Part shown: piece after piece, positions 4,153 through 44,716 of the stretch
Position numbering within the stretch: the first letter of the stretch is position 1
Layout: each line of letters opens with the position of its first letter
Assembly: GCA_905330235.1 (NCBI GenBank)
Contig: CAJNUA010000046.1
Coordinates: forward strand, 386,707-431,596
DNA from: Rotaria sp.
Lineage: Eukaryota
Length of the DNA stretch: 44,890 nt
Direction of reading: 5' to 3'
The notes under the pieces: model-generated
Seen by the model: only the letters and a program-made list of their open reading frames with translations
What the model was told of the DNA's origin: nothing
The model's database searches: none
Program-made: the position numbers and the translations under genes

Positions 4153-7100
4153 CGTAGGTATTCAGAGACATCGATTCTGTTCTGTGACTTTCAATTTCTA
4201 CCAAACATTCATTTGCGCTTGGATATGGACACCTACGACAACATACGGTAATCTAGATTATTAAATATGAGAGAATTTTGCTGAAGGAAACCTAAACTAA
4301 CACAATGAATGAATAATGATTCTTGGATATGTGCAAGATTTACATTTCACATGGATAGTGTCATTCGCATGACCAAGCACTCTATTGACTTTGACGTATA
4401 TCGCTAAGCTGAAAAAATAGTCTTGAATATTGACTGATGTTTAGAAATGTGCCACAAGGTAGTTTGAGGTTTTCACTACTATCATTCACGCTTCAGTCAA
4501 ATTCTGACAAAACTTTCGATAAGCTGCGACATGATCTATCGAATCTTACATTTGTCGAGAATTCAAACCGAGTTATGTTAAGAAAACTTTTCTGAAACCT
4601 GTTTCAGATAAGTTCGATGTATGAGAACATTTTAAAATAGAAAATTGTGCTTTCACATCATTATTTAAAAAGGCTTATAAGTTGGAGCGACGTGAGTGGA
4701 GATTTAACATTTTATCATATTCACTTGCCAAGTTTGCACTCATTAGAATAAGTGGAGAGAAAAATGTAGATAATGAAAAGAAAAGGACTCAAAACAGAGA
4801 ACCAACACATCTCTGTAGTTTTTGCTGACGCATGTAAGAATTCCATGCCCTAAATATAGTATTGTCAAAGTTTCAGCGAAGTGTATATCATCGTTTTGGA
4901 GACTTCAAACCCTCTTGTCGCGCAATGCCAAGCATCAGTGTATATTCAAGGTAATTTTTTAAATCCAACAATAAAAATCAAATTAACACAGTACTTGGTC
5001 ATCAGCATGAAGGTATCCATGAAAGATGTAATGCTCAAACTCATTCAAGAACCATTATTCACTATGTTGTTGTAGATTACTATCACCTAAATTCTTTCAC
5101 ATCTGACAATCTAGGTAGCCATGGTTTTTTCTAAGTGTTCATATTCAAGCCCAAATGAATGTTCGGCAGGAAAAGAAAATCACAGTATAGAATCGATGTC
5201 TCTGAATATCTAGAGGTACTCATAGATGTTCACAGTTTTTACAGGTACTGCAATAAAAAAAACGCCGATCATCGGTGAACAATTTAGTTTATTACTAAAA
5301 GAACCTTATAAAAGCGTTTATTGTCACTGTTATCTATCGATTTTGCTTTTGATCTCTTTTGATTTGCTAATGATCGCGTATTTCCATATAAAAAGACAGG
5401 GACATGTGAAAAGAAGAACATGTTAGAGTGACGTAAAATGTCACTGTGACACAAAGATTGTCATTAAAAAAAGAATATAATCAAGTGAAATTTTGAAACC
5501 ATGTAAAAACATATTTTTATCAAATTTGTTCTAATCAAACAAAAACAATTTTTGGTTAGAATGTTTATAAAAATCCAAGGAATGTTACATGTGTATAAAA
5601 CAAAATATGTACTTTTAAGGAGAAGAGAAGATATCATGAATATGCAATTTATCAAACTTAATATCAAATATTTCTATTCAAGAGAATTTTACTATTAAAA
5701 TATATCTCTCGTCAAAAATATTCAATAAATTAGTTCAGATTATATATTAGAGGGACTAATATGCTTATGTTGAGTGAAGTTTAAGGCATGTTTGCTAGCT
5801 CTGCTAATAAAAAATGTTGACAAACAGCTATGAATTCTGCTATTTTCCCCACACCATGTATCGTTATTCGTTTATAATAGTCATATTATACTTATCTAGT
5901 TGACGCTATGATTAGTGACCTGATGAGAAAAAGCGAGTGATTTAGTGCTTCCGTAACATTTTTCGAAGCAGTAATTAGCATAACTCAAATTATTTTTTCT
6001 CATTATGAAGGTCACAAACAGTATTTTTCTTTTGATAGACCATGTAACAATAATACTGTATTCATTTTGTCCATTTTAAATCATCAATGAAAGTAGATGG
6101 CGTGCTAATACTATAAATAAATATTGAACTAACATACGGAACAGTCATGGAAACTCATTTTAAAATTTTCAATAACATTATTAGAGTTATTGGATCTCTA
6201 TTGGGAACTGTAGATGTTTTAGAAAGTAGTCTTATATTTGCAATTGCTATCTAGATCATTCTCTTCATTAGTAGATCGAGATATTGATTGATGTGAATAT
6301 AAAAATAATGTTTATATGATTTTCGATTGTCGTCATAGGTGTTAACAATTCTTTTCAATAGGTCCAAGAACTATCTTGTAAATATTTATCTAAAAAGCTA
6401 ACAACAATTTTTTCAATTATATTTCTTATAATTAAGTCATAGGAAATGTGGAGTATTTTTCATACGTATAAATCTCTTCTCGTGCTTTTTATGACATAAT
6501 TGTTACAATATATGTTTAACTTTCTTGTTACGTAAAATGAAAAGAAAACGAGTAAATCAAACTTTAGTTTACAAATATATAAACAAAATAATTGAGAGAA
6601 ATAATTTTCCCTCTTTTGTCATTCTATGTGAAACAATTTTCTTTATTAAAAAAATATCCTTTTGATAGAAAGCTTTCTTCTTTTATCGACTTATTCTTAT
6701 AATGAAATTCGTCTCTAATGATCTTTTTTTCAAAATATTTTACCTATGAAACCAATTGTATTAGTGTTCAATGGTCAAAATCAATCAAGCAATCAAAGAT
6801 AATGTGATATTATTAAAACCAATGAAACATACTCTTCTCAATAAATGAATAACCATAAACAATATGTGTTCAAAATATACCCACTGGAATTCATTATAGC
6901 CACCAAAACAAGTCTATTGATTCGAGTTAAATAGAAACAAGACGTTTGGAAACAGTGTATGATAATTAATTTATCCCTGAAATATTATTAATTTTAGATA
7001 GTTTTCTTTGATAAAAATGATGATTAACAGACCAAACAAGCGTGAATGTACGTATGACGTGAAGATATTAATTACATCGACATCCACACTCACTTACTTC

Positions 7101-14104: not shown

Positions 14105-15130
14105 TTAATCCTTTAGTTCATTTTTTTCTCGTTGTGCTTCTAGTTTTTTTGTGACAATATCTACAGGATATTTTAATGCTAATCGTCGAATATCATAACT
14201 AAATTCTTCAAAAGTTTCACGCCATAAACGAGCTTCTTCTGGTGTATAATTATAAAAACCATTAGCATTCAAAATACCTTTTCCACCGGCTTTAACAATA
14301 TCATCGATGAGTTTCGGTATTTCAGTGCCATTATGAAGTGTAGGAAGTAAATCTTTCATAACAGAATGATAAGCTGGAATGCCAGTAAGATCCATCCATC
14401 GAAAGCATCCAACTAATGTCATCCAATAACCAGCATTATTACGACATGCTCGATCAACATCGTCAACAGAAGCATATCCATTTTCGACTAAATAAAAAGC
14501 TTCTCGATATAAAGCATACATGAGACGATTCGTAATAAAACCACGAATATCTTTTCGTACGAGTGTTGGTTCTTTAGCCCAGTGATGTGCAAGTTGATAT
14601 AACCATTCAGCTTTTTTTGGATCACTAGTGTCACCACAAATAACTTCTAAAAATCGTGTTGTATGAGATGGTTCAGCCCAATGTAAGCCGAGAAAACGAC
14701 TTGGTATACGAGTTTCTTGTTGAAGAAGACTAATTGGAATGGCTGATGTATTGCTTGTTATAATCGTATGGTCAGCAACAACATTTTCAATATTTTTATA
14801 TACTTGTCTTTTAATTGTGATATCCTCAAGAGTACATTCAATAACTAAGAAAGTATCCTTGAGACGAGTATAATCTTCGGTAATGGTCAGATTTTTGAAG
14901 TAAAAAGCTGGTTGTTCTAAACAAATTTCTTGTTCGAATGATCGAACAAGATGTTCATGAATACGAGCTTCAGCAGTTTCAAGATCGATTGGAAGTGATG
15001 CGATTGCTACAACTGAATGACCAGCTATTAAAAGACAAGTACTAATACTACAGCCCATAAGACCTAAACCAACCACACCGACTGTTATTTGTGCAGGAAC
15101 AATAGTTGAGATATTTTCTTTGGTATCCAT
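14105..15130 (-). CDS. 3-hydroxyacyl-CoA dehydrogenase family protein (NAD-binding Rossmann + HCDH C-terminal domain), intronless, 341 aa
   Basis: Single ORF from a true ATG. GxGxxG motif VGVVGLGLMGCSIS near the N-terminus, a central ...HWAEPSHTTRFLEVI... segment, and a C-terminal half typical of the 3-hydroxyacyl-CoA / 3-hydroxybutyryl-CoA / L-carnitine dehydrogenase family. Confidence 0.8.
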   Translation of the reverse strand: MDTKENISTIVPAQITVGVVGLGLMGCSISTCLLIAGHSVVAIASLPIDLETAEARIHEHLVRSFEQEICLEQPAFYFKNLTITEDYTRLKDTFLVIECTLEDITIKRQVYKNIENVVADHTIITSNTSAIPISLLQQETRIPSRFLGLHWAEPSHTTRFLEVICGDTSDPKKAEWLYQLAHHWAKEPTLVRKDIRGFITNRLMYALYREAFYLVENGYASVDDVDRACRNNAGYWMTLVGCFRWMDLTGIPAYHSVMKDLLPTLHNGTEIPKLIDDIVKAGGKGILNANGFYNYTPEEARLWRETFEEFSYDIRRLALKYPVDIVTKKLEAQREKNELKD

Positions 15131-19660: not shown

Positions 19661-19817
19661 TTGAAAAAATGTTTTTTTAAAAAACTTTTATTTTTCTTAA
19701 AACGGTTTTCTGAGCGGTATACTGTCATTTCTAGTCAAATTAAAGCCATTCCTAAGCAAAAAAGCCGTATGTCCACCTGCTTATGTGAAAGCTCCCCACT
19801 GTGCCCCACATTTATAC

Positions 19818-20000
19818 CTGCACCCGCACCCATACCCATACCTATACCAATACCCAGACCCAAACTCATTGCACACCAACACCCACACCCACACCCAAAC
19901 TCATTGCACACCTATACCAATACCCAGACCCAAACTCATTGCACACCAACACCCACACCCACACCCAAACTCATTGCACACCTAAACCCACATCCACATG
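19818..20000. repeat. CACCCA-type minisatellite containing two 60-bp higher-order copies, ~330 bp upstream of the MVP-1 ATG
   Basis: ataccaatacccagacccaaactcattgcacaccaacacccacacccacacccaaactcattgcacacct repeated twice; source of the spurious Pro/His/Thr-rich ORFs 19661..20050. Confidence 0.8.
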
Positions 20001-20324
20001 CTCGCATAGTTTATCATGATTTTATTATTGTTGGAAATTTTTGCTCTTAACTTCGGGTTTTTACCAATGAATCATCCAAAGTAACTTGCGTTTCATGTCA
20101 ACATTTTGTGAGATGAAAAAAGGTTGGCGTTGTGCAATAACAAGAAGCGAAAAAAAATATCGAGTGGATTTTTCTCTTCCCTCTACAGTGGGAGAAACTT
20201 GCCATCATGCACAAATTACGTCTTCACTTCTTACTACTTTCATTCTTTGATTTTTAGAAGAAGACATTTGTTAACACGCATACATAGTTGTTCAGTATCG
20301 TTCATATATAGGAAAATACTTGAT

Positions 20325-20518
20325 ATGAGTGCGATTTCACCAAGTGCTACCGATGGAAAAAATGCTGCAGGACCCGTCTATCGGATTCCACCTTATTATT
20401 ATATACATGTACTGGACCAGAACACCAATATCACGCGGCTCGAAACCGGTCCGAAGACTTTTATTAAGCAGGACAATGAAACGGTCACGGTGGGCCCAGA
20501 AAAAATGATCACCATTCC
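20325..20518 (+). CDS. MVP: MVP-1 exon 1
   Basis: ATG at 20325; [32 protein letters not shown]...MITIP; donor gtgagt; phase 2. Confidence 0.85.
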
Positions 20519-23414
20519 GTGAGTTTCCTATGCGGTAAGACGAAAAAGTAAAATATTATTTTTTATTTCTATAGCCCGCTACATTATTGTATTGTCGAAT
20601 CGCCAGTTGTACGCAACGAGGAAGGTGAAGTAGAATTCGATCAAAATGGTCAACCGAAATTGGTTCATGCTGATATTGATATTCGTCTGACACAGCCTGA
20701 TCAAACTCCGTTTCCTCTCTATCCAGGAGAAATTCTTCGCCAGGTATAATATTTTTAAAACGTTATTTGCTCGCATTAACCATTATTTATAGTCTGTCAC
20801 GGCACTTACAGTTGTCCCAGCTAATTCAGCACTGCGATTAAAAGCTGTACTCGATTTTGAGGATTTGCATAAGGAACAACGACGAGCCGGTGATGAATGG
20901 ATGTTCGAAGGCCCGGCTACCTACATTCCTCGTAAAGAAGTCAATGTCGAACAACAAATTCAAGCAACTATTATTGGTCCTAATCAAGCCATTCGGCTTT
21001 GTGCTAAAAAGGACCTTACTGATCGATCAGGTCAACATCGTGTCACTGGAGAAGAGTGGCTACTCAAGAAGACTGGTGCCTATTTGCCATTAGCCTATGT
21101 AATTTCTCTAGTATTTGTTTTCGTCGTTACCTGTTCATGTCAATCTTATAGGAAACGGTTGTATCAGTTCAAAATGCCTATGCTTTAACTGAGAAAAAAG
21201 CTCTTCATCTTCGAGCCCTTAAAACTTTCATTGACGATTTTGGTGAACAACGTTTGAATGGAGAAGAATGGCTTGTGACGCATGTTGATACGGAAACCCA
21301 CATTCTCAGTATATACGAAGAACTTGTTGCTGTTGTCGATGCAATCACACTCAACTCACGACAGTACTGTGTCATTCTCAATCCAGTTACCGATGGCAAA
21401 CCACAACTCGGACGAAAGGTCGGTATTTTGTCAAAAGATAAATATAAAAAAATATCGTATAGTTATTTTATTTAGAAATTGGTCGTTGGCGAAATATCAT
21501 TCTTTCTCCAACCAGGCGAAAAACTTTTAAAAGGCATTCAAAACGTTTTCATTTTAGGTGAAGACGAAGGTGTTATTGTCAAATGTAATGAAACATTTGA
21601 GGATGCACAAACAAAGAAAGTACGTATTCCGGGTGAACGATGGATGATTCGAGGGCCAACGTAGGTTACTTTTTCTCTCATTACAGAACATTTTGAATAT
21701 ATAGCTATTGTTTTTGAACTCTTAGTGAATATATTCCACCTACTCAAGTCGAAGTTGTCACTCGACGACAAGCAATTCCATTAGATGAAAATGAAGGCGT
21801 CTATGTTCGCAATATTAAAAGTGGCCGTGTTCGAACAGTAGTTGGTGAAACTTACATGTTAACACATGATGAAGAACTTTGGAACAAAGAATTACCCGAA
21901 CAAATCGAATACTTACTAACCCGTGATCCATTGACTGAACGCTATTCTGCCATGCGTGGAACGGTCTCGGTCAACAGTGGATTGACAACTATTGCCTTAA
22001 ATAGTCAATCGAACAGTTCGACATCACTTACTATCAAACGCGCTAAATGGAAATTGATTACATATCGTGTTCCATATAATGCGGCTGTCCAAATCTATGA
22101 TTACAAATTGAAGAAAGCTCGTATTGTTTTCGGTCCGGAACTTGTCATGCTTGAGCCTGATGAACATTTTACTCTGATTTCTTTAAGTGGTGGTATACCC
22201 AAAAAACCTAATCAAGTTAACTCGCTTTGTTTACTACTCGGTCCGAATTTCTTCACTGATAGCATTGACATTGAGACGGCTGATCATGCTCGTCTCTCCC
22301 TTCAACTTGCTTACAGTAAGTTAAAAACACAGAAAAAACATTTAAAAATGTACATCATTGATTATTCTTTATTTGGCAGACTGGCACTTTGAGGTGAAAG
22401 ACATAAATGATACAAAAGAAGCGGCTAAACTCTTTTCAGTACCTGATTTTGTCGGAGATATATGCAAAGCCATAGCTTCACGTATTCGTGGTGCTGTAGC
22501 TAGCACTCAGTTTGATAATTTTCATAAAAATTCCGCTCACATCATTCGTGAGTCTGTGTTTGGTCTTGATGCGAATCAGTGTGTACGCGATCAAATTATC
22601 TTTCCACAAAATAACCTTGTCATTACATCGATCGACATTCAAAATGTTGAGCCTGTCGATATACGTACGCGTGATGCACTACACAAGAGTGTGCAACTGG
22701 CCATTGAAGTATGAACTTAAATTGTTTGCCTTTTCTGCAATGTTAACAACAATTTCTACTTTAGATAACGACGAATTCGCAAGAAGCCGCTGCTAAACAT
22801 GAAGCTTCACGTCGTGAACAAGAAGCTAGAGGTTCCTTAGAACGACAGCGTATCAAAAATGAAGCTGAAGCCGAAAAGATCCGACAAATACTACTCGAAT
22901 CACAAGCCCTATCAGCGGCGATCGAATTAACTGGTCAAACCAAAGCAGAAGCTTTGAGTCGTGCTGAATCGAAGCGTATTGAAGGCGAAACAGCCGTTCA
23001 TCAAGGTATTTACTTTGCTACATTTATATAATGAAAACTTATTCTTTTTCTCGATCCATTGCAGCACGTCGCAAAGCTGAGGCGACCAAAATCGACGATG
23101 AAGCCGAATTGGCCCATTTGAGATTGATACGCGAAGGTGAAATTAGGTTTTTACGCGAACAAAACGAACTAGAAATTAAGAAAAAAGCCGAATTGTCTCG
23201 AATCGAGACTGAAAAATTTAAATTGCAAGTCGAATCAATCGGTACTTCAACTATTCAAAGTATTGCTACATCGGGTCCTGAGACTCAAGTTAAACTTTTG
23301 CAAGCACTCGGAATACAATCGATGCTTGTTACTGATGGCAAAAGTCCAATCAATCTCATGGACTTCGGTCAAGGTCTACTCGGTGGTCTAACAGACCGTC
23401 ATGTAATTAACTAA
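20325..23414 (+). CDS. MVP: Major vault protein paralog 1, gene span (9 coding exons, ~876 aa)
   Basis: Translation aligns end to end with MVP: [14 protein letters not shown]..., the repeat domains, [33 protein letters not shown], the coiled-coil cap helix, and the C-terminal [20 protein letters not shown]. All splice phases are consistent. Confidence 0.9.
20575..20743 (+). CDS. MVP: MVP-1 exon 2
   Basis: Acceptor atag; [56 protein letters not shown]; donor gtataa. Confidence 0.85.
20793..21098 (+). CDS. MVP: MVP-1 exon 3
   Basis: [50 protein letters not shown]...TGAYLPLAY; donor gtaatt. Confidence 0.85.
21152..21418 (+). CDS. MVP: MVP-1 exon 4
   Basis: [26 protein letters not shown]...[18 protein letters not shown]; donor gtcggt. 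Confidence 0.8.
21476..21660 (+). CDS. MVP: MVP-1 exon 5
   Basis: [32 protein letters not shown]...RWMIRGPT; donor gtaggt; phase 2. Confidence 0.85.
21726..22315 (+). CDS. MVP: MVP-1 exon 6
   Basis: [11 protein letters not shown]...[28 protein letters not shown]...[14 protein letters not shown]; donor gtaagt; phase 1. Confidence 0.85.
22380..22708 (+). CDS. MVP: MVP-1 exon 7
   Basis: [41 protein letters not shown]...SVQLAIE; donor gtatga. Confidence 0.9.
22765..23005 (+). CDS. MVP: MVP-1 exon 8
   Basis: [38 protein letters not shown]...ETAVHQ; phase 1. Confidence 0.85.
23065..23414 (+). CDS. MVP: MVP-1 exon 9 (stop at 23412-23414)
   Basis: [26 protein letters not shown]...[47 protein letters not shown]. 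Confidence 0.9.
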
Positions 23415-25643
23415 TTGCAAAAAATTGCTGATAATTACCCATATTCAAGAACATGCATTAGCAAACAACACATTGTTTTATTGTTTTCATAGAAAAAATT
23501 GCTTCCGATATGTCATATTAGGTTTCCCGGTTGTGATACCCGTGTAGTTTGATTATTGTCTTATTCTTTCATAGATTGTTTGAATATTAAGAAAGAATGA
23601 AAATCATGAACTATATTTTAAATGAACTACTCTTTATGGAGATGGAGACTGCCATTATTGTTCATTCAACGATTTATTAAACTAAAATCGAATTTTCCAG
23701 AAAAGTTCATCTATGTGAATAAAATTTTTACGCCAGATTATTGAAAGATACTTTTAACGAAGAGATATAGTCTTTATTGTGATATATCAACGAGACATAT
23801 CTATATTTGTTAGAGTAGTACTGTAAACCTCTCGCAGTACACATCTGCACAATTTTTACCATAAATTCCTGGATGTGTCATAAGTGTTCAATCATGTATA
23901 ACTTACCCGAAGAGGAGTTCTATGTAATGTGAGAAGAAAATTAAAAGTATCTGTTGATGATTCAAAATGAGATGAAGTTTGCATCTTTCTTTCATGGAAA
24001 GATAATTTCTGTGGCTAATTTGTTCTGTTTGTTTTTGTTTACTTTCAATGTAGCGAAGGTATAAAACATTGATCTGATATCTCAACAAAACTTTTAAAAG
24101 TGCAGTAAAATCAAAAGTCTGATCTTGGAAAAATTGATTTTAATGTTCTCTAGTTACTAGGTTTCAGAAAACCTTTAATGAGAAGATGTGTAATTACTTT
24201 CACAATCTTAAATATTTTAAAACGCAACTTACTGTCTCATAGATGAAGTTCTCAAGAAGTAAATGCAGAGATTGCCAACTTCAGAGTTTTATAATAGGTA
24301 GAACATTTAATATAAGCCCAAATAAAGAAGTTTCTTGATCTAATATGGATATATTCTTCTGTTAGAGTATTTTTCAAAATATGTGATCTCTTTGACAGAA
24401 AAAATAAACGAAACAATGAGCTTTCAGAAAAGAGGTGTAAAGTTCTATGCAATGCGACCCGAGATTGAATTCGGAGAAAACTGAAAAAGAAACTCTTGGA
24501 TTGCAAAATTTGCTAAATAATATTTGATATCGATTATTTATAAGAATTTTGGTATTAAAACTTGAGAGAACGCAGTGAACGGTTATTTTTTGAATCAGTT
24601 CATCTATTTTTATTCAATAAAAAGCGTCAACTTTCAACTGATTGTTGGCTGTAGGATTGGGCTCAAATATGATGAATATAATGGACATTTAATACTCCCA
24701 AGCAATGTAAAGGGGCAATAATGGAAGAGAGTTTGTTAATTGCGAGGTTAACTAAGTGTTTCAGGATATGTTTATTGGGACTATCAATATGATCTTACGA
24801 CGCTGACAATAGAACACTTCGACATCAAAGATATGTCGAAGAAACACGAATTAACGCTATAATTAAATCGAGCCGAATATGATATCGAGTTCTGAATCGA
24901 TTCGAATTACTTCTTTTCTTGGTAATCTTCTCGCATCAAATGAGATTTTTCTTCCTCTTCAACCCACGAGACTTGCTATGATTTTTCTAAAACAACATCA
25001 AGAAAGTCATCTGATTAACTTAGATAGATCGATAAAGTGTTCAACAGTTGAAAAGAACAACTAGGTAAGTTCAAATAAAAGAAGGAAAAATTATTGGAAT
25101 ATATCATGAACCCCTGGTTGATACTCGAAACAAACAAGAAATACTGCAACTCGAGAACCTCAATTTCTTCGCCTGCCTAATTTAGAAATTCGAGTTCGAT
25201 TTTCTATTTCTGATAGAAGGGTATTCTAAATTGAAGAAATCATGAGTAAGAGACGATAAAAGTCTTGCAAGAGTAGCACTTCTAAATAGATTATAAATAG
25301 TTGCTATGGTTAAGTGTTTATATTGTCTGATGGATAAGCCTTGTTGACAATGTGATGGATGTAAATATGATCTAAATAGAAATCTAAGGGAAAACGTGAT
25401 TTTCATATTGGAGTTTTCATAAGATTCGTCTGACTCGAATTATTATTGGCATCTTTGGAAATATATCATCATAGGTAATTAATTTATTGTGTTTATCTCA
25501 AAAGGAAATAGTGATGACGAAAAAAACTAAAGTATCATGAAACAAGTACTTTAGTCTTTTTGGAGAAAAAAAGTCATATGACCATGTATTTCTAAAGTGT
25601 TGTATATTTGAACACCTCAGTCTTTTTCGACCAATTACCACTT

Positions 25644-25787
25644 TTAATTGGTCTTCATGGGAAATGTCCCCTGATGAGAATTCGATGATCCACCAATGAG
25701 ATCAACTGCTGTATTGAAAAGATTGATCGGACTGTGACCATCAGTAATTAATGTTGACTTAATGCCGAGAGCTTGAAGAAGTTTAAC
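25644..25787 (-). CDS. MVP: MVP-2 exon 14 (stop 25644-25646)
   Basis: [47 protein letters not shown]. Confidence 0.85.
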
Positions 25788-28700
25788 CTAAAGAGATTAT
25801 TAGACAAACGATTGAGCAACATAAATATGAGGAATATATCTACTTGATTGTCAGGTCCACTAGTGGCAATAGCTTGAATTGTTTGAGATCCTATAGCAGC
25901 CACATGCTCCTTGAATTCTTCGATTTCAATATTAGTAATTCGTTTCGTTTTTTCAATTTCAAGTTCAGATGTTAATTTATCATGTGCCAATTCGAGTTCA
26001 CGTGTTTGCATCAAGCGATCGAGTTCAGTATCAGATTTAATCTTCCCTGCTTCAGCTCGAAGAGTAGCTATTAGAAAAGATCTCGGTCTTCGACTAAAGA
26101 TTTACAAAAACCAATTTCGAACATACCTTGTTCGACAGCTGCGTCTCCCTCGATTATCGCTGCTTCTGCACGCGACTTAGCTTCAGCATGCGATTGGCCA
26201 ACCAATTCTACAGCTGCCGAACGTGCTTGAAGCACCAACAGCTCCTGACGTTCCTTTTCGGCTAGAAAAATTAAGATTACATATATAGTCTATAGAATAA
26301 TATAGGTTAATGGGTAAAGCTCGAAATCAAATGGTAGACGTGGAGTCATGATATTGGAAATTGATGGTCTACAAAGTGTGACAATCTCAGATACAATTTA
26401 CGTCGAATGATTGATATTATTTTATTAGAGTGCGGAAGAATTATGTAAGCTTTATAGATAGGTTCTGAAAGCGACCATATTGATACTTTTAGATGAACAG
26501 AATAAAAATGAAATTTTGTCTTATCTTTTCAAGTTAACATGTAAACAAAGTCGAAACACTATGCTAATCTCTAATACATATACACAAGAGTGCAAAACAA
26601 TAATAATCGTCTACCTTCAGCTTCATCGGTGATCCTTTGTCGTTCCAGATAACCTTTGGCTTCTTGTTGAATTCGTGAAGCCATATGCCTATTAAAAAAA
26701 AACATGAAAATAGTCGTTTTTTTTCTATCTCATCATTTCTTTTACTTGGCTTGAGCTTCTTGTGAGTTAGTCGTTATCTAAAGTAGAATTTTGACAAAGT
26801 CAGATAAATATTTATCGAAAGAGAATTTAATTACTTCAATAGCTAGTTGAACGCTCTTCTGAAGAGCATCTTGTGTTCTTTGATCGACCGGTTTAACGCT
26901 TTGAATATCGATTGAAGTGAGAACAAGATTATTTTGTGTGAAGACAAGTCGATTATTAATTCGCTTGTTTTCATCAATACCAAAAACGGACGTACGGATA
27001 ATTTTGGCCGAATTTTTATGAAAATCGTCAAATGAAATACCAGCAACAGCACCACGAATTTTTGCTGCGACAGTCTTGCAAAAGTCTCCAACAAAATCAG
27101 GTACTGAAAAGAGTTTAGCTACATCTTTGCTATCATTCTTATCGGCAACCTAGAAATAGAAGGCACACTCTTTCTGTTGCTGATTAAAAAATACGATTTC
27201 TCACTTCGAAATACCAACTATAGGACAACTGGAGTGAGAGTCGAGCATGGTCACTCGATTCAATGGTTACGACATCAGTTGAAAACTCCGGTCCAAGCAA
27301 AAGGCACATAGCACGGATTCTGTTTGGAACCTTCGGCTTATCACCGGATAGGTTAAGAATTGTAAATTGCTCATCAGGACCAAGCATAACAAGTTCAGGC
27401 CCGAAAATGATACGAGCGTTTTTAGATTTATAATCATAAATTTGTACACATGCATTATGTGGTACACGATAAGTGATTACTTTTGATTTGTCTCGAGGTG
27501 GAAGCACAGCGATTACTGCTGATTGGTTTTTAAAGTGGCGAACATCAAGTGCAAGTAATTGTTCGACTTCAGTTGGTAATTCTTTTTCCCAGAGTTCTTC
27601 ATTTTCGGTAAGTAGATAGGTACTACCGATAATTGAACGAATTTTGCCCATCTTGACATTACGTACATATATACCTTCGTTTACATCCAATGGAATAGAT
27701 TTTCGTCGATTTACAACCTCAACTTCGATAGCCGGAATATAATCTCTAGGACCTCGAATCATCCAAAGATCACCTGGATTGTGTATTACATTCTCAAAAG
27801 TTAAGAAATAATTTTCAAAGAAAATAAAAAAATTCTACTAACTTTCTCTTCGCTAAATGCTTCGATACATCGAAGAATAAGACCTTCGTCTTCTTCAAGT
27901 ACATACACATCCTGAATACCGTTGGCAAACTTCTCACCTGGCTGCAGAAAAAAGATCGCTTCACCCTAGTCGAAAACGCCCTCATTAGTGGAATAACATT
28001 AATAATAGTAACAGCCATACTTTAACAAGTTTTTTCTTTCCTAGCTGAGGTTTACCGTTTGAGCCGACTGGATCAATAATGATACAATATTGGAGAGAAT
28101 GAAGTACGGTAACCGGAACAATATCAACCACCTATTAATTATTTTTTAAGTGTTTTAAGTGATAGTAGACAAAGAAGAAGAAAAAACCTCTTCATAAACA
28201 TCGGGTATATATGTTTCAGCATCGTTAGCATATACCAACCATTCTTCACCATGAAGACGTTTACGTTTGAATATATCAACAAATGTTCGTAAAGCACGAA
28301 TGTGAAGAGCTTTCTAAACATGCAGTTATAATGAATAACAACAAATAGTATTTATTTCGTTGGCTCATACTTTGTCGGTTAACACGTAGGCCTTGACAAT
28401 CGAAACAACTTCTTCGTAAGCCGATGGTAAATAAGAACCAACCATTTGAATGAGCCATTCTTCACCTGCTTCACGCTCAATACCGTTTCTGTCAATCATT
28501 TTCTTTTTAGCACGCAGACGAATCGCTTCATTCGGTTTCAAAATATTAGCTTGAATTTCCCTATCAACATGAACTTCTTTGCGTGGGAAATAGGTTCCTA
28601 AAAAAATGAATATGAAAATCAATAACGAAATCTTATTGAGTCTGTTTTATATGTCAGCGTTGCAGTAGTGCATCATTTTCAATTTCTGAACTAACAGTAT

Positions 28701-29259
28701 CGTATCGAACCTGGTCCCTCAAAGAGAAATTCTTCACCAGCGTGAACTTCTTGGCCATTGTCATCAACAAAATCAAGTACAGCACGTAGACGAAGAGCTC
28801 TATTGGGCTCGACTACTTGAAGTGGGCTGACAGCTTTTCTGAGTACTTCACCAGGATAGAGCGGAAATGGATCTTGAGAAAATCGAATTTCAATATCCGA
28901 ATGAAACAATTTGACTTGACCATTCGCATCAATAACAATTTCACTGTCATTGCCGCGTACAACTGGGTTTTCAATAACACAATAGTGACGAGGGCTGTAA
29001 AAATCAAAATGAAACAATCAATAGAATTATAAAGACTACATACGGAATAATTAACATGCGTTCTGGTCCAATTAGAACTTTTTCATGATCTTGTTTAACA
29101 AATGTCTGTGGGCCAACTTCAAGATGAGTAACGTTTGTATTTTGATCGAGTACATGGACATAGTAGAATGGTAGAATTCGGTAAACTAAATAGAAATATC
29201 ATCATAAATACTATTGCGGAGACGAAATACTCACCACCAGTAACTTCCGAACAGGCCAT
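25644..29259 (-). CDS. MVP: Major vault protein paralog 2, gene span (14 coding exons, ~849 aa), convergent with MVP-1
   Basis: Minus-strand translation reads MACSEVTG|[32 protein letters not shown]..., LSYSWYFE|[37 protein letters not shown]..., and ...[33 protein letters not shown]...*. Total coding length is 2550 nt with consistent phases. Confidence 0.85.
25844..26067 (-). CDS. MVP: MVP-2 exon 13
   Basis: [75 protein letters not shown]; donor gtagat. Confidence 0.85.
26127..26261 (-). CDS. MVP: MVP-2 exon 12
   Basis: [45 protein letters not shown] + g; donor gtatgt. Confidence 0.8.
26615..26688 (-). CDS. MVP: MVP-2 exon 11
   Basis: (K)[24 protein letters not shown] + g; acceptor ttaatag; donor gtagac. 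Confidence 0.7.
26746..26777 (-). CDS. MVP: MVP-2 exon 10 (32-nt micro-exon)
   Basis: [10 protein letters not shown] + aa; acceptor ctttag; donor gtaaaa; needed to keep frame between exons 9 and 11. Confidence 0.65.
26835..27149 (-). CDS. MVP: MVP-2 exon 9
   Basis: [57 protein letters not shown]...QKSVQLAIE; donor gtaatt. Confidence 0.9.
27205..27792 (-). CDS. MVP: MVP-2 exon 8 (588 nt)
   Basis: [27 protein letters not shown]...[36 protein letters not shown]...[15 protein letters not shown]; donor gtgaga. Confidence 0.85.
27843..27965 (-). CDS. MVP: MVP-2 exon 7
   Basis: [41 protein letters not shown]; donor gttagt. Confidence 0.8.
28021..28131 (-). CDS. MVP: MVP-2 exon 6
   Basis: [37 protein letters not shown]; donor gtatgg. 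Confidence 0.8.
28188..28313 (-). CDS. MVP: MVP-2 exon 5
   Basis: [42 protein letters not shown]; non-consensus donor gag|gttttt. Confidence 0.7.
28371..28597 (-). CDS. MVP: MVP-2 exon 4
   Basis: [75 protein letters not shown]; donor gtatga. Confidence 0.85.
28711..28994 (-). CDS. MVP: MVP-2 exon 3
   Basis: [95 protein letters not shown]. Confidence 0.85.
29044..29185 (-). CDS. MVP: MVP-2 exon 2
   Basis: Acceptor ctatttag; (V)[47 protein letters not shown]; donor gtatgt; phase 2 (shared with the MVP-1 intron 1 position). Confidence 0.8.
29235..29259 (-). CDS. MVP: MVP-2 exon 1 (ATG 29257-29259)
   Basis: MACSEVTG + g; donor gtgagt. Confidence 0.65.
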
Positions 29260-29379: not shown

Positions 29380-29940
29380 GTAATACGCATGCTACTCGCC
29401 TGATAGATGTTTCCGCGACAGTTGCTCTTCGGACACTTACTCCTTGAACAGTTACTCTTGCGACATTTACTTCCATGAATAGTAGCTCTTTAGAAACACT
29501 TGCTTCCCAACGATATTTAACAGAACCATTACTGATTACAAGAACAAATATAAATGAGTATAAGTGTGGATGGAATACAGGATATGGGTGGGATATGGGC
29601 CTTAGTGTAGGTGTGGGTATGAATTTAGAGAAAATCCACACCCACACCCATCCACCACGCCCAATCTTACACCGATTTATAACTATTTTACCTTTCTCTT
29701 AGCTTATAATAATCTATAATTATTCAAAAGTTATTTGAGAATTTTTAATGCGTCGCTCACGGTTGCAGTACAACTGTCTGGGAGTAAGTGTCGCGTTAGC
29801 AACTGTTCAGAGTCACAATGCCGTTGGAGAGCAACCGCTACTATGCAGCAAGTATTGCGAGAGCAACTCTTCTGGAAACAAGTGTCCCTGGAGAGCAAGC
29901 GCTTGGGGAACAACTGTTATAGGAACATCTGCCAGGAAAG
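29380..29940. repeat. Composite palindromic repeat: 3 tandem ~31-bp units (acagttgctcttcggacacttactccttga...) - (TGGGTG/CACCCA)n core 29566-29670 - inverted copies of the same ~31-bp unit (ggagagcaaccgctactatgcagcaagtattgcgagagcaactc...)
   Basis: The motif gcgacagttgctc on the left and its reverse complement gagcaactgt... on the right flank a GT/CA-rich core; the structure lies 120-680 bp upstream of the MVP-2 ATG (29259, minus strand). Confidence 0.65.
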
Positions 29941-38880: not shown

Positions 38881-38985
38881 TGGGTTGGATTGGGTTGGGT
38901 TTGGTTGGAATGGGTTGGGTTGGATTCGGTTGGGTTGGGTTGGGTTGGGTTGGGTTGGGCCGGAATAGGTTGGGTTCGGTTGGGA
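38881..38985. repeat. (TTGGG)n-like pentanucleotide array (tgggt/tggat/ttggt units)
   Basis: tgggttgggttgggttgggttgggttgggc... Confidence 0.8.
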
Positions 38986-39259
38986 AATTCATTTTCGCTT
39001 ACAAGTAATTATAGATAATATGTACATTTATTGAGGTTGCCATAGGGCAAACTTAAGTTCGGAATTCAATTTTAGCTGACACCCATAAATTGCCTGCCAG
39101 CTTCTGCAAGTAGTTGCTGCCTGACATTTGGTCATCCAAGACGCTACCAACAGCTATTAATCAAAATCTAGACGCACCGAGCACAACGCCCCCATGCAAA
39201 CTGGAACCCATCATCGCACTCAGATCCACAAGCCATATCACACCAACACCGTCAACTTC

Positions 39260-39525
39260 ACCCACACACAAATCCCACACATACACCGACACACAAATCC
39301 CACACATACACCCACACACAAATCCCACACATACACCCACACACAAAGCCCACACATACACCCACACACAAATCCCACACATACACCCACACACCGGCCC
39401 ATACATCAACACCCACATACCGACCCATACATCAACACCCACACACCGACCCATACATCAACACCCACATACCGACCCATACATCAACACCCACACACCG
39501 ACCCATACATCAACACCCACACCCT
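39260..39525. repeat. Two adjacent minisatellites: 24-bp unit cacacaaatcccacacatacaccc (x4) followed by a ~28-bp unit acaccgacccatacatcaacacccacat (x4)
   Basis: Read directly; generates the spurious His/Thr/Pro-rich ORFs 39114..39694. Confidence 0.8.
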
Positions 39526-39943: not shown

Positions 39944-40169
39944 TTAGACTTCAACTTCATTTCTGTATGTTTTTCAATTAGACGAGTCTTCCCTGATTAT
40001 CCTTAAAAGCATTAGATTAAATTTCCATGAAATTTCCCCTATAGTCACTTTATTTGAATTTGCTGGAAAGCGGAATTTACCATCGCATGCATTTTTGTGA
40101 TCTCTTTGAAAGTACGGTTGATAAGTGAAAACTGAAGTAAATCTAGATGGTAACACAAACGTTGCTATC

Positions 40170-40535
40170 CAGACAGATGCTCCCGCGACAGTTGCTCTCC
40201 ATCGACACAGGTATGAGTGTTGGTGTGAGTTTCGATGCAGGTGTGGCTGTGGGTCTCAGTGTACGTGCGAATGCAATTGTGCGCGTTAGTGTGAAAGTGG
40301 GTGCGGGTGTGGATGTAGGCATGGATGAAGAGATGACGGGCATTCATACCCACAGCCATAGCCTCCCCAATATCCGCACACACCCACACTGGTCTCTTGA
40401 ACTTGTGGGTGTGAGTCGGTGTGCGGGAAGATGTGGCTGTGGATGTGAATGTTCATTGCTTCTTCATCTATCTACACCCACACCCGTGTCGCTGAGAAAC
40501 AACTGTCGCAGAAGCAACTGTCTGCGGCGCATCTT
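40170..40535. repeat. Second member of the inverted-flank GT/CA element family: ccgcgacagttgctctcc - (TGGGTG)n / (CACCCA) core - gagaaacaactgtcgcagaagcaactgtctgcggcg
   Basis: Same flanking motif (gcgacagttg and its reverse complement) as 29380-29940. Confidence 0.6.
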
Positions 40536-41831
40536 TCATCGAATAGAACTAGCTTTTCATTTTTTCCAAAATTGGATTTAGAAAACACGTCTGGTGATTT
40601 ACGTGGTTTTGATGTCACCAAATTTTCTTTTCATTATATAACCATGACAATCAGTATTGAGCCTAAATATTTTCTACTAATTTATGTTATAATCTATGAC
40701 AAGTCTTTTTTCCTTATCTATAGTCTTCCTCAGGTATTGTCAGTAAATTGTTTAATCTTCGTTCCATTTGATTTTGTTATGGACTAATAGAGCTGGGTCG
40801 GTTGATCAGAAATATTACATTTTTTTCGAAATCATTTCAGAAAGAAGGAAGATTCGAAGCTCTTCTTTTTGTAGTCCAATTTGAAATCGAATTCTTCTCT
40901 GCTTTTGAGTTCATAATTGAATGTCGGACTACTATATACATTTTGAAAGACATTATTCTTCGTTATGTTAGTATCATTGTCGAAATTCATAGTTAAATAA
41001 ATGTGGAAACCTCGGATTTAGATCCGAGAGTTATGTGTACTTCAAAAAGTGAATTAGACAGATGAGTCATCCTAGAATGTGTGGACATCAAAATTATCCT
41101 GGCAAATCTTTCCTATAAACACTTGACTTCTATTGGCTATTGCTCACCCAATATGACTTGGGGGCGAATACAGCTCAGATTCGAACTCGTCGTCTTGATT
41201 TACCTTAAGAAAGTCGTTTTTTTCTATCAGTTGATTTATATTGGTTACCCCTCAACCAACAGGATTTCGAGGTAAGTGGAGTACAGATTCGAGTTCTCCA
41301 GTCCAGAAAACCTCAAAGTATCATCTCTGTGATCAGAAGACTGAGCTCTAATTGTGGATCAATTAGACTGTGGACGAAAACAGAACCAATTTCCGTTTAG
41401 TTATCTTTGTAATCGTTGAGTTAATCTTCTTGTTTCTTTATGTTTTATATGGGCGTGTAAAGCCGACCTGATACCCCAAGATATATTTGCTGATATAGCT
41501 TCAACTATTTATCGGAAAAATAGGCTTTTTTTACTAGTTGTACTTTGCATATAGTACTACTCATCGGACACTATTTGAGGTTTATATTACTTAGAATGAG
41601 AGCTGATGAGTACGTCCTTATGATTATTATGCTACATGTGCTTCATATCGTATTTATTACCATCTCGTTCTCAGTGTATATCTCGTTCCTGATAAGGTTT
41701 TATCCATTCTCTCGTGTGTTTACATTCTAGTCACACCACATTTCTCCTAACTTTGATTTTTTTTCTTTCTCTGTCTTTCATTTTACTGAATGCACTCTCA
41801 CACAATAGCAAACGCTCACTAACTTCGTATT

Positions 41832-42075
41832 ATGTTCTCTCCACAACTTGAATGGAGTTGTTCTCGATGTCGATCTACCATGTTTGATCGCCGGAAGTAT
41901 TGTACCGATTGTCATTCTATGTTAAGTTGGACATGTATTGGTTCGAAAAAATCTGGTTTGTACACAAATTATTATCATCGTCGTGACAATTGTATTTATT
42001 GTACACCAGAACTCGAAGAAGAAAAACAACGGAATATGAAGGAAAAGCAACAACAGTTTCGAACTTTGGATGACA
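41832..42075 (+). CDS. Harbinger-like transposase exon 1 (Cys/His-rich N-terminus)
   Basis: ATG at 41832; CSRCRSTMFDRRKYCTDCHSMLSWTCIGSKKSGLYTNYYHRRDNCIYCTPELEEE...; donor a|gtaagt at 42076; phase 1. Confidence 0.6.
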
Positions 42076-42132
42076 GTAAGTAATATTACTTTTCTCAGTT
42101 TACACATGCACTTCTGGTTCCGTTGTTTTTAG

Positions 42133-43028
42133 AACAACATCCGTGGTTAGAATGGGGACGTAGCAATGAATCTTGCCTACAACATACCGGGCATGACGTT
42201 GAACAAGTACAACAACTATATTCTATGTGTGAACAAGCACTTATAAACTACTGCTCTCACCGGAGCGAACAACATTTAGACAGTACTATGACACCATATT
42301 TATCTCCTATGAATTTGCTGTTAGTTACATTATGGTACTTAAAACACTACCATTCTGAACGCTATATTGCTACAGAAGCGAATTTGACGCAAAAGGGAGT
42401 GAATTATTTCTTATCATCGATTCTGGATATTTTACATTCCTGTGTATATCCGGAGTTAGTTTCACTACCTGTTGATCTAGCGAGCAGAAGAACACCACAT
42501 GGACCTGAACGACAACATAAACTAATCGTTGATTCGACTTTTATTGCAATACCTGAACCTTATGATTCAGAAGAACGTAAAGCATATTATCATGCAAAAA
42601 GTCCAACAAATTATGCATTAAAAGTTCAAATAGCTTGCAATTTTCTTCATCGAATTGTTCATGTATCCAAATGCTATCATGGAAGTGTACATGACATTAC
42701 AATTCTAAGAGATTCAAGTCTATTAGAACACGTAAACGACTCTGTACAAATTATTGCAGACAAAGGATACATTGGTGAAGAAAATGTAGTTACTCCAAGA
42801 AAAAAACCTCATTGACGTGAATTAACAGATGAAGATAAAGATTTTAATCGTGATATTAATAGTGCAAGAGCAGCTATTGAAAATATTAACCAGCGTCTTA
42901 AAAGTTATGCTATTCTTGATGATGTTTATAGAGGAGCTATCGATAACTTCCATAAAGCAACACAAATTGTACAAGTCGTTTCTGCTCTGTGTAATTTGAA
43001 CTTAAATAAACATCCTATTGGTAGATAA
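42133..43028 (+). pseudogene. Harbinger-like transposase exon 2 (DDE_Tnp_4 core) interrupted by a single in-frame TGA at 42813-42815
   Basis: Acceptor ttttag at 42132, with phase completing aaa. The core reads ...KLIVDSTFIAIPEPYDSEERKAYYHAKSPTNYALKVQIACNFLHRIVHVSKCYHGSVHDITILRDSSLLEHVNDSVQIIADKGYIGEENVVTPRKKPH*RELTDEDKDFNRDINSARAAIENINQRLKSYAILDDVYRG...IGR*. It contains the HARBI1/PIF signature (D...NxKxxHSxxVQ..C..., PGSxHD, xDxGY, then LTxEDxxFNRxIxxxRxxIExxxxRLK) and continues in the same frame after the stop. Confidence 0.7.
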
Positions 43029-43654
43029 AAACAACGATAAGCTGTATTTGTTCATTTACTAGTTGAAAAGGAAACTTTGCTACTGATGTTTCGTATTGAT
43101 TTAAAATTCTTAGTAGCATACAGTGTACGTTAATAAATACGATATGAAGCACATGTAGCATAATAATCATAAGGACGTACTCATCAGCTCTCATTCTAAG
43201 TAATATAAACCTCAAATAGTGTCCGATGAGTAGTACTATATGTAAGGTACAACTAGTAAAAAAATCATATTTTTCCGATAAACAGTTGAAGCTATATCAG
43301 CAAATATATCTTGGGGTATCACGTCGCCTTCTCACGCCCATATACCATTTTGTAGCTCGTGAAATTCTCTGTCGAATGGTATATAATAGTTGGAGTTTTA
43401 TTTGATTATGATAGTAAAAGCTTTTTACGAAAGTGAGAATAGGTCGATTTTCCTATAGGAAGCCATAGGGAAAAATTACTATTTTTGCAATAACTCAGGA
43501 ACGGCTCGGCCAGTCATGCTCATCTTCGAACTCGACCGAGATATTGTTAAGACTGAACTGTGTAGAAAATTTCATCGCAATCGAACTCTCCTTTCAAAAG
43601 TTATCGTGTAAACGGCTGGACGGTCGGCCGGACGGACTCACTGACCGATTCTAG

Positions 43655-43680
43655 AGTGTACTCACTTTTTGAGTACACAA
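43655..43680. repeat. Perfect 9-bp-stem palindrome gtgtactca-cttttt-tgagtacac
   Basis: agagtgtactcactttttgagtacacaaaaag. Confidence 0.6.
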
Positions 43681-43683
43681 AAA

Positions 43684-43915
43684 GATTTCCTTGGCCGAAA
43701 AAATCGAGTTCGAAATTTTGAAAATCTGACTTCAGATTCGGATTCCCCGACTCTGATTTATTTTCGTCAACCTTTATACAACATCATTACTTTCTCAAAA
43801 AATATTTCCTTCACCGGAAAAATTCAACTGAAAATATTGAAGAACCTACTTCAGATTCGGATTCCTCGACTCTGAATTACCTTCGGTCAAACTTTATAAT
43901 GTTCTTTAATCCCAC
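43684..43915. repeat. Two tandem ~118-bp units
   Basis: ...cttcagattcggattccccgactctgatttattttcgtcaacctttataca... matches ...cttcagattcggattcctcgactctgaattaccttcggtcaaactttataat... Confidence 0.65.
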
Positions 43916-44586: not shown

Positions 44587-44716
44587 GGTGTGGGTGTGGG
44601 TGTGGATAAATAGAAGAGCAGCACACACCCACACCCACACCACACACCCCACACCCACACCCACACCCACACCCACACCCACACCCACACCCACACCCAC
44701 ACCCACACCCACACCC
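44587..44716. repeat. Palindromic (GGGTGT)3 - 17 bp - (CACACC)~18 block
   Basis: gggtgtgggtgtgggtgtgg ataaatagaagagcagca cacacccacacccacacc...; the left part is the reverse complement of the right repeat unit. Confidence 0.8.

Follow-up and report, generated by a model that had tools for sequence, protein, structure and literature searches.

A tail-to-tail pair of divergent major vault protein genes in a bdelloid rotifer and the history of its introns

Most animals carry one gene for the major vault protein (MVP). Dictyostelium discoideum has two MVP paralogs, MvpA and MvpB, both of them vault components, for which we know of no conserved tail-to-tail layout and no contrast in intron pattern. 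The Dictyostelium paralogs are highly similar, and in Trypanosoma brucei three divergent MVP paralogs enter one vault shell (PMC12547018). A survey of MVP evolution also records duplications in kinetoplastids and ciliates (PMC3762200). Among bdelloid rotifers, five MVP genes of Adineta vaga are over-expressed after radiation or rehydration, in a study with no account of subfamilies, of linkage or of how the genes are structured (PMC10809525). Here we analyse a stretch of 44,890 nucleotides (nt) from Rotaria sp. (GCA_905330235.1, contig CAJNUA010000046.1, positions 386,707 to 431,596 of the forward strand; hereafter the window), in which two MVP genes, MVP-1 and MVP-2, face each other tail to tail. 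Our results make it highly probable that the two are functional members of two anciently separated bdelloid MVP subfamilies, whose gene structures diverged mainly by differential intron loss.

Like Dictyostelium, the rotifer has MVP paralogs in one organism, and like A. vaga it is a bdelloid with an expanded MVP family, which is stress-responsive in that species. The best model for the retention of both rotifer subfamilies is T. brucei, where several divergent full-length MVPs (MVP1, MVP2 and MVP3) have long been kept in one lineage. T. brucei differs in being a protist, and its MVP genes are not reported to lie in a linked, convergent arrangement; the rotifer subfamilies, at 59% identity, are less divergent than its paralogs, and co-assembly, shown there, is presumed for the rotifer. 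For gene structure, a precedent is provided by the bdelloid alpha-tubulin classes, which differ markedly in intron number and position, the monogonont gene being intronless (PMC3464624). Duplicates diverge in exon-intron structure as a general rule, according to Xu et al. (2012, PNAS) as that work is cited in PMC3464624. The MVP genes resemble the alpha-tubulins in being old bdelloid paralogs with divergent introns and a nearly intronless monogonont ortholog, and differ from them in that outgroups resolve the polarity of the changes and in that the paralogs are physically paired. Our literature search found no account of the bdelloid MVP-1/MVP-2 split, of a conserved convergent pair or of its intron history.

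Two complete MVP genes facing each other

The two genes, the spacer between them and the elements of MVP-2 that require scrutiny are as follows.

20325-23414, + strand: MVP-1 gene, start to stop codon, 9 coding exons, 876 amino acids (aa)
20325-20518, 20575-20743, 20793-21098, 21152-21418, 21476-21660, + strand: MVP-1 exons 1-5
21726-22315, 22380-22708, 22765-23005, 23065-23414, + strand: MVP-1 exons 6-9
22316-22379, + strand: MVP-1 intron 6, phase 1, within the Asn codon of LAYNWHFE
23415-25643: spacer between the stop codons, 2,229 nt, containing both 3' ends
25644-29259, - strand: MVP-2 gene, start to stop codon, 14 coding exons, 849 aa
29259-29235, 29185-29044, 28994-28711, 28597-28371, 28313-28188, - strand: MVP-2 exons 1-5
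28131-28021, 27965-27843, 27792-27205, 27149-26835, 26777-26746, - strand: MVP-2 exons 6-10
26688-26615, 26261-26127, 26067-25844, 25787-25644, - strand: MVP-2 exons 11-14
28132-28187, - strand: MVP-2 intron 5, 56 nt, phase 0, donor GTTTTT at 28187
26746-26777, - strand: micro-exon, MVP-2 exon 10, 32 nt, encoding 10 residues plus 2 nt
26262-26614, - strand: MVP-2 intron 11, 353 nt, unusually long
L001 15320-18935, L002 15321-18936, L003 15321-17328: public MVP-2 models in three assemblies, corresponding to window 25644-29259

Both models were built by six-frame inspection of 20200-23500 (+) and 29400-25500 (-), with MVP-like open segments joined at GT-AG boundaries, and both were independently returned by a purpose-written protein-to-genome spliced aligner (BLOSUM62, three intron phases, GT/GC-AG sites). 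The eight MVP-1 introns (49-65 nt) and the 13 MVP-2 introns (twelve of 49-113 nt, one of 353 nt) are all GT-AG. When the MVP-1 protein was threaded on the MVP-2 locus, the same 13 introns were obtained, including those that bound the 32-nt exon and the one with the GTTTTT donor. The initial annotation of this DNA, made from the letters alone, had described two complete facing genes with stop codons at 23414 and 25644, and our clean frames bear this out. Two further candidates were rejected as artefacts of cross-paralog guidance in variable loops, a 63-nt "intron" at the MVP-1 locus under MVP-2 guidance and an in-frame 48-nt "intron" in one MVP-1 model of Didymodactylos.

In a database protein search, the MVP-1 model matched an annotated protein of Rotaria sp. 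Silwood2 (P0001) at 100%, which identifies the source as this bdelloid. Compared with solved structures, residues 17-868 of MVP-1 match residues 18-863 of rat MVP in a single stretch (E=0), and MVP-2 residues 8-838 likewise align in one stretch to human and rat MVP (E=0), so that the shoulder domain and the cap-helix and cap-ring behind it are colinear with those structures. Both proteins score far above the curated cut-offs of the vault repeat families (PF01505, PF17794, PF17795 and PF17796), with bit scores for MVP-1 and MVP-2 of 210 and 211 for Vault, 106 and 109 for Vault_2, 115 and 107 for Vault_3, and 78 and 61 for Vault_4; MVP_shoulder (PF11978) scores 176 and 162. The two proteins align over their full length at the identity given above, within the 55-60% first estimated, and are 65-71% (MVP-1) and 62-66% (MVP-2) identical to the MVPs of other animals. 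A tblastn search found no further MVP fragments in the window. The spacer is colinear with that of Rotaria sp. Silwood1 at about 72-74% identity, below that of the exons; it resembles only this orthologous region, and has no Rfam or tRNA match and nothing recognisable. Within the window, Rfam matched no vault RNA, a result that bears on this stretch of DNA and not on other loci.

The unusual elements of MVP-2 raise the question of whether it is a decaying or mis-spliced pseudogene to which a 14-exon frame has been over-fitted. The donor of intron 5 is non-consensus, exon 10 has 32 nt and exon 1 only 25 nt, codon bias is weak (effective number of codons, ENC, 46.5), and the public models of the gene in the three assemblies disagree, with 787, 709 and 394 aa. 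The 709-aa model (P0122) omits residues 269-346 and 495-556 of the 849-aa model; directly past the GTTTTT donor it skips exons 6-7, which would cost 78 aa of the repeat domains. However, the 849-codon frame is clean with canonical intron ends throughout, the paralog-guided alignment gives the same structure, and both structure and open reading frame (ORF) are intact in Silwood1, in R. socialis and at a second Silwood2 locus (L015). The Silwood1 annotation P0121 agrees with the 849-aa model over residues 19-840, including the stretch past the GTTTTT donor; the Silwood1 public model of MVP-2 is fused to an upstream region containing leucine-rich repeats (LRR). At the intron 5 donor, Silwood1 also has GTTTTT, L015 has GTAGAT and R. 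socialis GTGTGT. The micro-exon is 97% identical to that of Silwood1, amid flanking introns of 79% and 72% identity; a 32-nt exon lies at the same place in both Didymodactylos MVP-2 genes, and the micro-exon is present in P0122 too. The micro-exon and the GTTTTT donor, both noted in the initial annotation, recur in the model and in the spliced alignment.

Transcript-derived sequence from related species points the same way. Four metatranscriptome contigs of the Joint Genome Institute (JGI; L019-L022), at 73-79% nucleotide identity, carry intron-free ORFs of MVP-2 type, of which those of L019 and L021 are uninterrupted over 841 and 839 aa, and L019 is gap-free over every predicted MVP-2 junction, among them exon 1/2 and the two that flank the micro-exon. 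These contigs support the MVP-2 splicing model, short of proof for the window gene. The 849-aa model is the one colinear with all orthologs, and we take it as a correction of the public MVP-2 models.

Selection was assessed from the ratio of nonsynonymous to synonymous divergence (dN/dS, Nei-Gojobori) against Silwood1, which is 0.12 for MVP-1 and 0.17 for MVP-2, with 0.10-0.13 for other ortholog pairs. Between Silwood2 and Silwood1, exons are 84-97% identical, except for the divergent first and last MVP-2 exons, and introns 66-85%. Because dN/dS is 0.17, because relatives have kept the ORF and all 13 splice positions and because intron-free transcripts are colinear, MVP-2 is best described as functional; judged from these comparisons, both genes are functional paralogs under purifying selection, as had been proposed, and MVP-2 is not decaying. 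The pseudogene explanation is already largely refuted, and we give it very little credence.

Phylogeny and conserved pairing in bdelloids

MVP-1 has relatives at 72-90% identity in Rotaria sp. Silwood1 and Silwood2, R. sordida, R. socialis, R. magnacalcarata, Adineta steineri, A. ricciae and Didymodactylos carnosus. For the Silwood2 genome, the tree contains no fewer than four or five lineages of MVP-1 type, along with two genes of MVP-2 type. Orthologs of MVP-2 are found in Silwood1 (88%), R. socialis (78%) and Didymodactylos (70-71%). A second MVP gene had been called unusual; this is true of animals generally and not of bdelloids, as the Silwood2 family and the A. vaga genes (PMC10809525) demonstrate.

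The tail-to-tail arrangement of MVP-1 and MVP-2 is present in three Silwood2 assemblies, in Silwood1 (gene models 2.8 kb apart), in three assemblies of R. socialis and at two separate loci of Didymodactylos carnosus. At the second Silwood2 locus (L015), a gene of MVP-1 type (884 aa) lies tail to tail with one of MVP-2 type (839 aa), and on a moss-metagenome contig (L036) the tail of an MVP-1-type gene converges on an MVP-2-type gene. The suggested search of related genomes for the same pair was thus productive. Adineta has a different arrangement: at the A. steineri locus L017 an MVP-1-type gene stands alone, with no MVP-2 remnant within 8 kb, and no MVP-2-type protein is among the best matches in the A. 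steineri and A. ricciae protein sets. All 13 intron positions are identical across the four Rotaria MVP-2 genes (window, Silwood1, L015 and R. socialis). The convergent pair is therefore a conserved unit, which has probably itself been duplicated, and MVP is a multigene family in bdelloids.

To place the duplication, we computed a neighbour-joining tree from Kimura distances among 54 sequences over 840 columns, with 200 bipartition bootstraps. All rotifer MVPs form one clade with 100% support, and the bdelloid MVP-1 and MVP-2 clades each receive 100%; Didymodactylos occurs in each of them, as sister to Rotaria (plus Adineta). Because both of these clades hold Didymodactylos, the MVP-1/MVP-2 duplication appears to be older than the deepest sampled bdelloid split, the bdelloid crown, in keeping with the earlier view of an old duplicate pair in close linkage.

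Both subtrees contain a long-branched A lineage, which comprises the window genes and their orthologs in Silwood1, R. sordida and R. magnacalcarata, and a sister B lineage, which comprises L015, R. socialis and environmental sequences, plus Adineta for MVP-1. The A/B split is parallel in both subtrees with 95-100% support, and synonymous divergence (dS) between A and B is 1.33 for MVP-1 and 1.07 for MVP-2. This parallel topology, together with the similar dS, suggests that the pair was duplicated as one unit; it bears on the event itself and not on its mechanism.

Intron positions in the two subfamilies

The initial annotation had counted 8 introns in MVP-1 and 13 in MVP-2 with three coincident positions, and all three were reproduced on the alignment with the phases it had given: IIP-P (phase 2), LAIE (phase 0) and AV(H/E)Q (phase 1). 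These are MVP-2 introns 2, 9 and 12, shared with MVP-1 introns 1, 7 and 8, and they are the only positions that the window genes have in common. Each annotated outgroup protein was threaded on its own locus and all positions were mapped on one alignment, whose relevant columns are gap-free and highly conserved unless stated otherwise. The outgroup MVP genes have 12 introns in Lottia, 12 in Saccoglossus, 16 in Nematostella and one in Brachionus.

Three MVP-2 introns, 3 (FEGP-G, phase 1), 4 (between LTDK and K) and 10 (phase 2), match all three intron-rich outgroups. Intron 5 (between YEE and V), the one with the GTTTTT donor, has a position common to Lottia and Nematostella, and introns 6 (between LVK and G) and 13 (between DNQ and V) have positions common to Saccoglossus and Nematostella. 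Intron 7 coincides exactly with a Lottia intron; the alignment is gapped there, and the nearest introns of Saccoglossus and Nematostella, both in phase 0, are 1-5 columns away. By position and phase, then, seven of the 13 MVP-2 introns, and seven of the ten that MVP-1 lacks, are ancestral metazoan introns. The remaining three are confined to bdelloids or narrower groups: introns 1 and 8 occur only in MVP-2 of the Rotaria type (intron 8 also in the environmental contigs L036 and L039), and intron 11 only in bdelloid MVP-2, including one Didymodactylos copy. Intron 11 has 353 nt in the window, 356 nt in Silwood1 (71% identical) and 53-66 nt in B-lineage genes; the window sequence has no other copy in the window or the fetched loci and no Rfam or tRNA match, resembles only its Silwood1 ortholog and shows nothing recognisable.

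MVP-1 presents a different pattern. Its sole ancestral intron is intron 2 (after EILRQ), at a position also occupied in Lottia and in the two Didymodactylos paralogs. Introns 3, 4 and 5 are confined to MVP-1 of Rotaria and Adineta, and intron 6 only in the A lineage and R. socialis: it is present in MVP-1 of the window, Silwood1 and R. socialis and absent from that of L015 and from Adineta. MVP-1 has five private sites relative to MVP-2, so the earlier statement that MVP-2 reads through four of them was a small miscount. Two of the five have a different intron of MVP-2 no more than 4-5 codons away (LGRK-K against LVK-G, and LAY(N), phase 1, against FE-V, phase 0). In the codon that intron 6 interrupts, Didymodactylos has an intron in phase 2; counted from that codon, outgroups have a phase-2 intron one codon downstream, and MVP-2 a phase-0 intron 5 codons downstream. 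Around LSYNWHFE, 14 nt thus hold four alternative intron positions across the MVP family. We also considered whether the new MVP-1 introns are relocated ancestral ones, since they lie 1-16 codons from lost sites; ancestral introns are spaced about 49 columns apart, so these distances are at chance level and we make no such claim.

Every bdelloid MVP has the intron after LAIE, no outgroup does, and it was probably gained before the duplication. It is intron 9 of MVP-2, on one side of the micro-exon, and the ancestral intron 10 (Lottia, Saccoglossus, Nematostella) is on the other; these two introns define the 32-nt exon.

These comparisons bear on whether the intron difference arose mostly by gain in MVP-2, as a hotspot of recent insertion. 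Such gain would fit the counts, 13 introns against 8 with ten absent from the neighbour, and Brachionus, with its one intron, could be taken to represent an intron-poor rotifer ancestor, which would make the bdelloid introns gains. Yet seven of those ten coincide in position and phase with mollusc, hemichordate and/or cnidarian introns, and Didymodactylos MVP-2 has five of these seven ancestral positions. In Didymodactylos MVP-1, the ancestral phase-1 intron at FEGP-G is still present. Environmental MVP-2 genes with 11, 8 and 5 introns carry nested subsets of the same positions, which indicates ongoing intron loss in them. Moreover, no intron resembles another intron or a repeat: when the 21 introns were compared with the window and 59 loci (blastn-short) for a signature of introners or transposon-derived sequence, only orthologous introns matched. 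The only intron of the Brachionus calyciflorus MVP gene (L012), 66 nt long, has a position that none of the other sampled species shares, and the gene represents near-complete intron loss relative to the 12-16 introns of Lottia, Saccoglossus and Nematostella. Predominant gain in MVP-2 is most improbable. Ten MVP-2 introns had been described as its own; they are indeed absent from MVP-1, but as novelties the seven shared with outgroups do not stand. In the same way, the two structures do differ sharply, as an account of extensive gain and loss had it, but the asymmetry is mainly loss from MVP-1, with four MVP-1-specific and three MVP-2-specific positions in addition. The recommended mapping onto orthologues, run with Lottia, Saccoglossus and Nematostella, identifies MVP-2 as the copy with the conservative structure, though it is slightly more diverged in sequence, and MVP-1 as the copy that has been re-patterned.

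Loss on this scale might mean that MVP-1 is a retrocopy that landed beside its parent and acquired all its introns later. Bdelloid genomes have active reverse transcriptases, most ancestral introns are gone from MVP-1, and of its eight positions four are seen in no other gene. Against this, the ancestral EILRQ intron is kept in all MVP-1-type genes and shared with Lottia and both Didymodactylos paralogs, and Didymodactylos MVP-1 has, besides the FEGP-G intron, four further positions in common with Didymodactylos MVP-2. These retained introns imply that the original MVP-1 contained introns, and a retrocopy origin is very hard to credit. Partial, cDNA-mediated loss of runs of introns from MVP-1 is possible.

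A further explanation for the shared introns, or for the similarity of the pair, is ongoing gene conversion between the inverted paralogs. Two positions occur in both Rotaria paralogs and in neither Didymodactylos paralog, with two others showing the reverse, and the L015 pair has a very high fraction of identical codons over residues 470-680. However, a control comparison across species and subfamilies, Adineta MVP-1 against MVP-2 of Silwood2 L015, gave equally high codon identity, which, with an ENC of about 32, points to shared codon bias rather than conversion. In protein windows at the shared introns, orthologs score 0.73-0.85 and paralogs 0.47-0.67, and the shared-position introns of the two window genes resemble each other no more than shuffled sequences do. 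We therefore consider conversion a distinctly improbable source of the shared positions.

Codon usage itself differs between loci. Bias is extreme in both L015 genes and the Adineta MVP-1-type gene at L017 (ENC 31-33; GC content at third codon positions, GC3, 0.06-0.10) and weak in both window genes (ENC 46-48, GC3 0.27-0.31), which also have longer branches. The partners of a pair share a regime of codon bias and rate, which suggests differences between pairs in expression level or local mutation bias.

Proposed history of the pair and its surroundings

We then propose a model for the origin of the locus. A single inverted local duplication in the bdelloid stem, before Didymodactylos diverged, would have produced the tail-to-tail pair, as the tree and gene order suggest, and the two genes would have stayed linked ever since. 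The unit was probably duplicated again before Rotaria and Adineta split, and the window would carry the faster-evolving A copy. The gene before duplication was probably rich in introns, with ancestral metazoan introns and a few gains on the rotifer or bdelloid stem. MVP-2 would have kept seven ancestral introns, and MVP-1 would have kept one and lost the rest; the copy-specific positions, four in MVP-1 and three in MVP-2, would be lineage-specific gains or short relocations. Since both products keep every MVP domain and are under purifying selection, both most likely form vault shells, jointly in one particle or each in its own, by analogy with trypanosomes and Dictyostelium.

Several points weigh against this account. 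The public annotation P0122 splices MVP-2 differently and skips exons 6-7, and for the window gene, splicing at the GTTTTT donor and inclusion of the micro-exon and of the 25-nt exon 1 are argued from conservation. The tree, built by neighbour joining from about 840 columns, places Brachionus with MVP-2 at only 74% and does not fix the timing of the duplication relative to the bdelloid-monogonont split. The single private intron of Brachionus cannot polarise any position. Neither Didymodactylos paralog and none of the outgroups has the IIP-P or the AV(H/E)Q intron, a distribution that needs either parallel loss or parallel gain. The simplest reading is that they were present before the duplication and were then lost in Didymodactylos; some introns shared by both paralogs in one bdelloid lineage may be parallel gains at the same site. 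For the second duplication, a tblastx comparison of L008, L015, L017, L006 and L011 with the window found no neighbours shared between A and B flanks, only a transposon, and the comparison of A and B as ohnologs from the ancient bdelloid genome duplication found no conserved flanking gene order. Finally, co-assembly of MVP-1 and MVP-2 into vaults would follow purely from the analogy with other organisms.

Other features of the window are listed below.

14105-15130, - strand: uninterrupted ORF, 3-hydroxyacyl-CoA dehydrogenase, 341 aa
16030-16899, - strand: uninterrupted ORF, short-chain dehydrogenase, 289 aa, adjoining the preceding ORF
19810-19998: 70-nt unit x2.1 containing ACACCCACACCCACACCC, 330-500 nt upstream of the MVP-1 start
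29415-29490 and 29800-29930: degenerate repeats around CAGTTGCTCT...ACACTTAC upstream of MVP-2, also at 40161-40207
29418-29490: 30-nt unit x2.4 of the CAGTTGCTCT...ACACTTAC motif, with further copies to 29870
29570-29660: GGGTG/CACCC inverted patch, about 310-400 nt upstream of the MVP-2 start
38881-38984 and 39259-39522 (near 39 kb): (TGGGT)x21 and a 25/26-nt CACCCACACA unit x10
40980-43690 (approximate): transposable element shared with other MVP loci
42123-42815, + strand: ORF within this element, DDE_Tnp_4 / DDE_Tnp_1 domain, PIF/Harbinger-like
44624-44716: (CACACC)x15 tandem array

Sequence related to the transposon lies near other MVP loci (L015, about 2100-2930; L008, about 6220-6500), as expected of a dispersed element and not of synteny. 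The core of the CAGTTGCTCT...ACACTTAC motif has 8 matches in the window with at most one mismatch, against 2.0 expected; one of 100 shuffles reached 8, and the excess is marginal. The unit of the (CACACC)n array is a permutation of the complement of TGTGGG, a repeat reported from bdelloid telomeres, and the C/A-rich arrays may be interstitial telomere-like tracts. The two dehydrogenase ORFs are intronless amid neighbour genes with many introns, and intronless metabolic genes are classic candidates for horizontal transfer in bdelloids.

Together, our results do not overturn current understanding, as there are earlier records both of duplicates with diverged exon-intron structures and of MVP paralogs. 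It is tempting to speculate, though we regard this as unlikely on balance, that bdelloid vaults are built from two obligatorily co-inherited MVP subfamilies, kept as a unit since before the bdelloid radiation. If true, a co-inherited unit would suit a heteromeric shell or stoichiometric co-expression, and might belong to the response to radiation and desiccation, during which MVPs of bdelloids are induced. For intron evolution, the locus offers a clean, polarised duplicate pair, in which the structure of one copy has been frozen and that of the other re-patterned. Vault function is still unclear, and two old, linked MVP subfamilies represent a natural system in which to ask whether animal vaults can be heteromeric and whether vault expansion relates to extreme stress tolerance.

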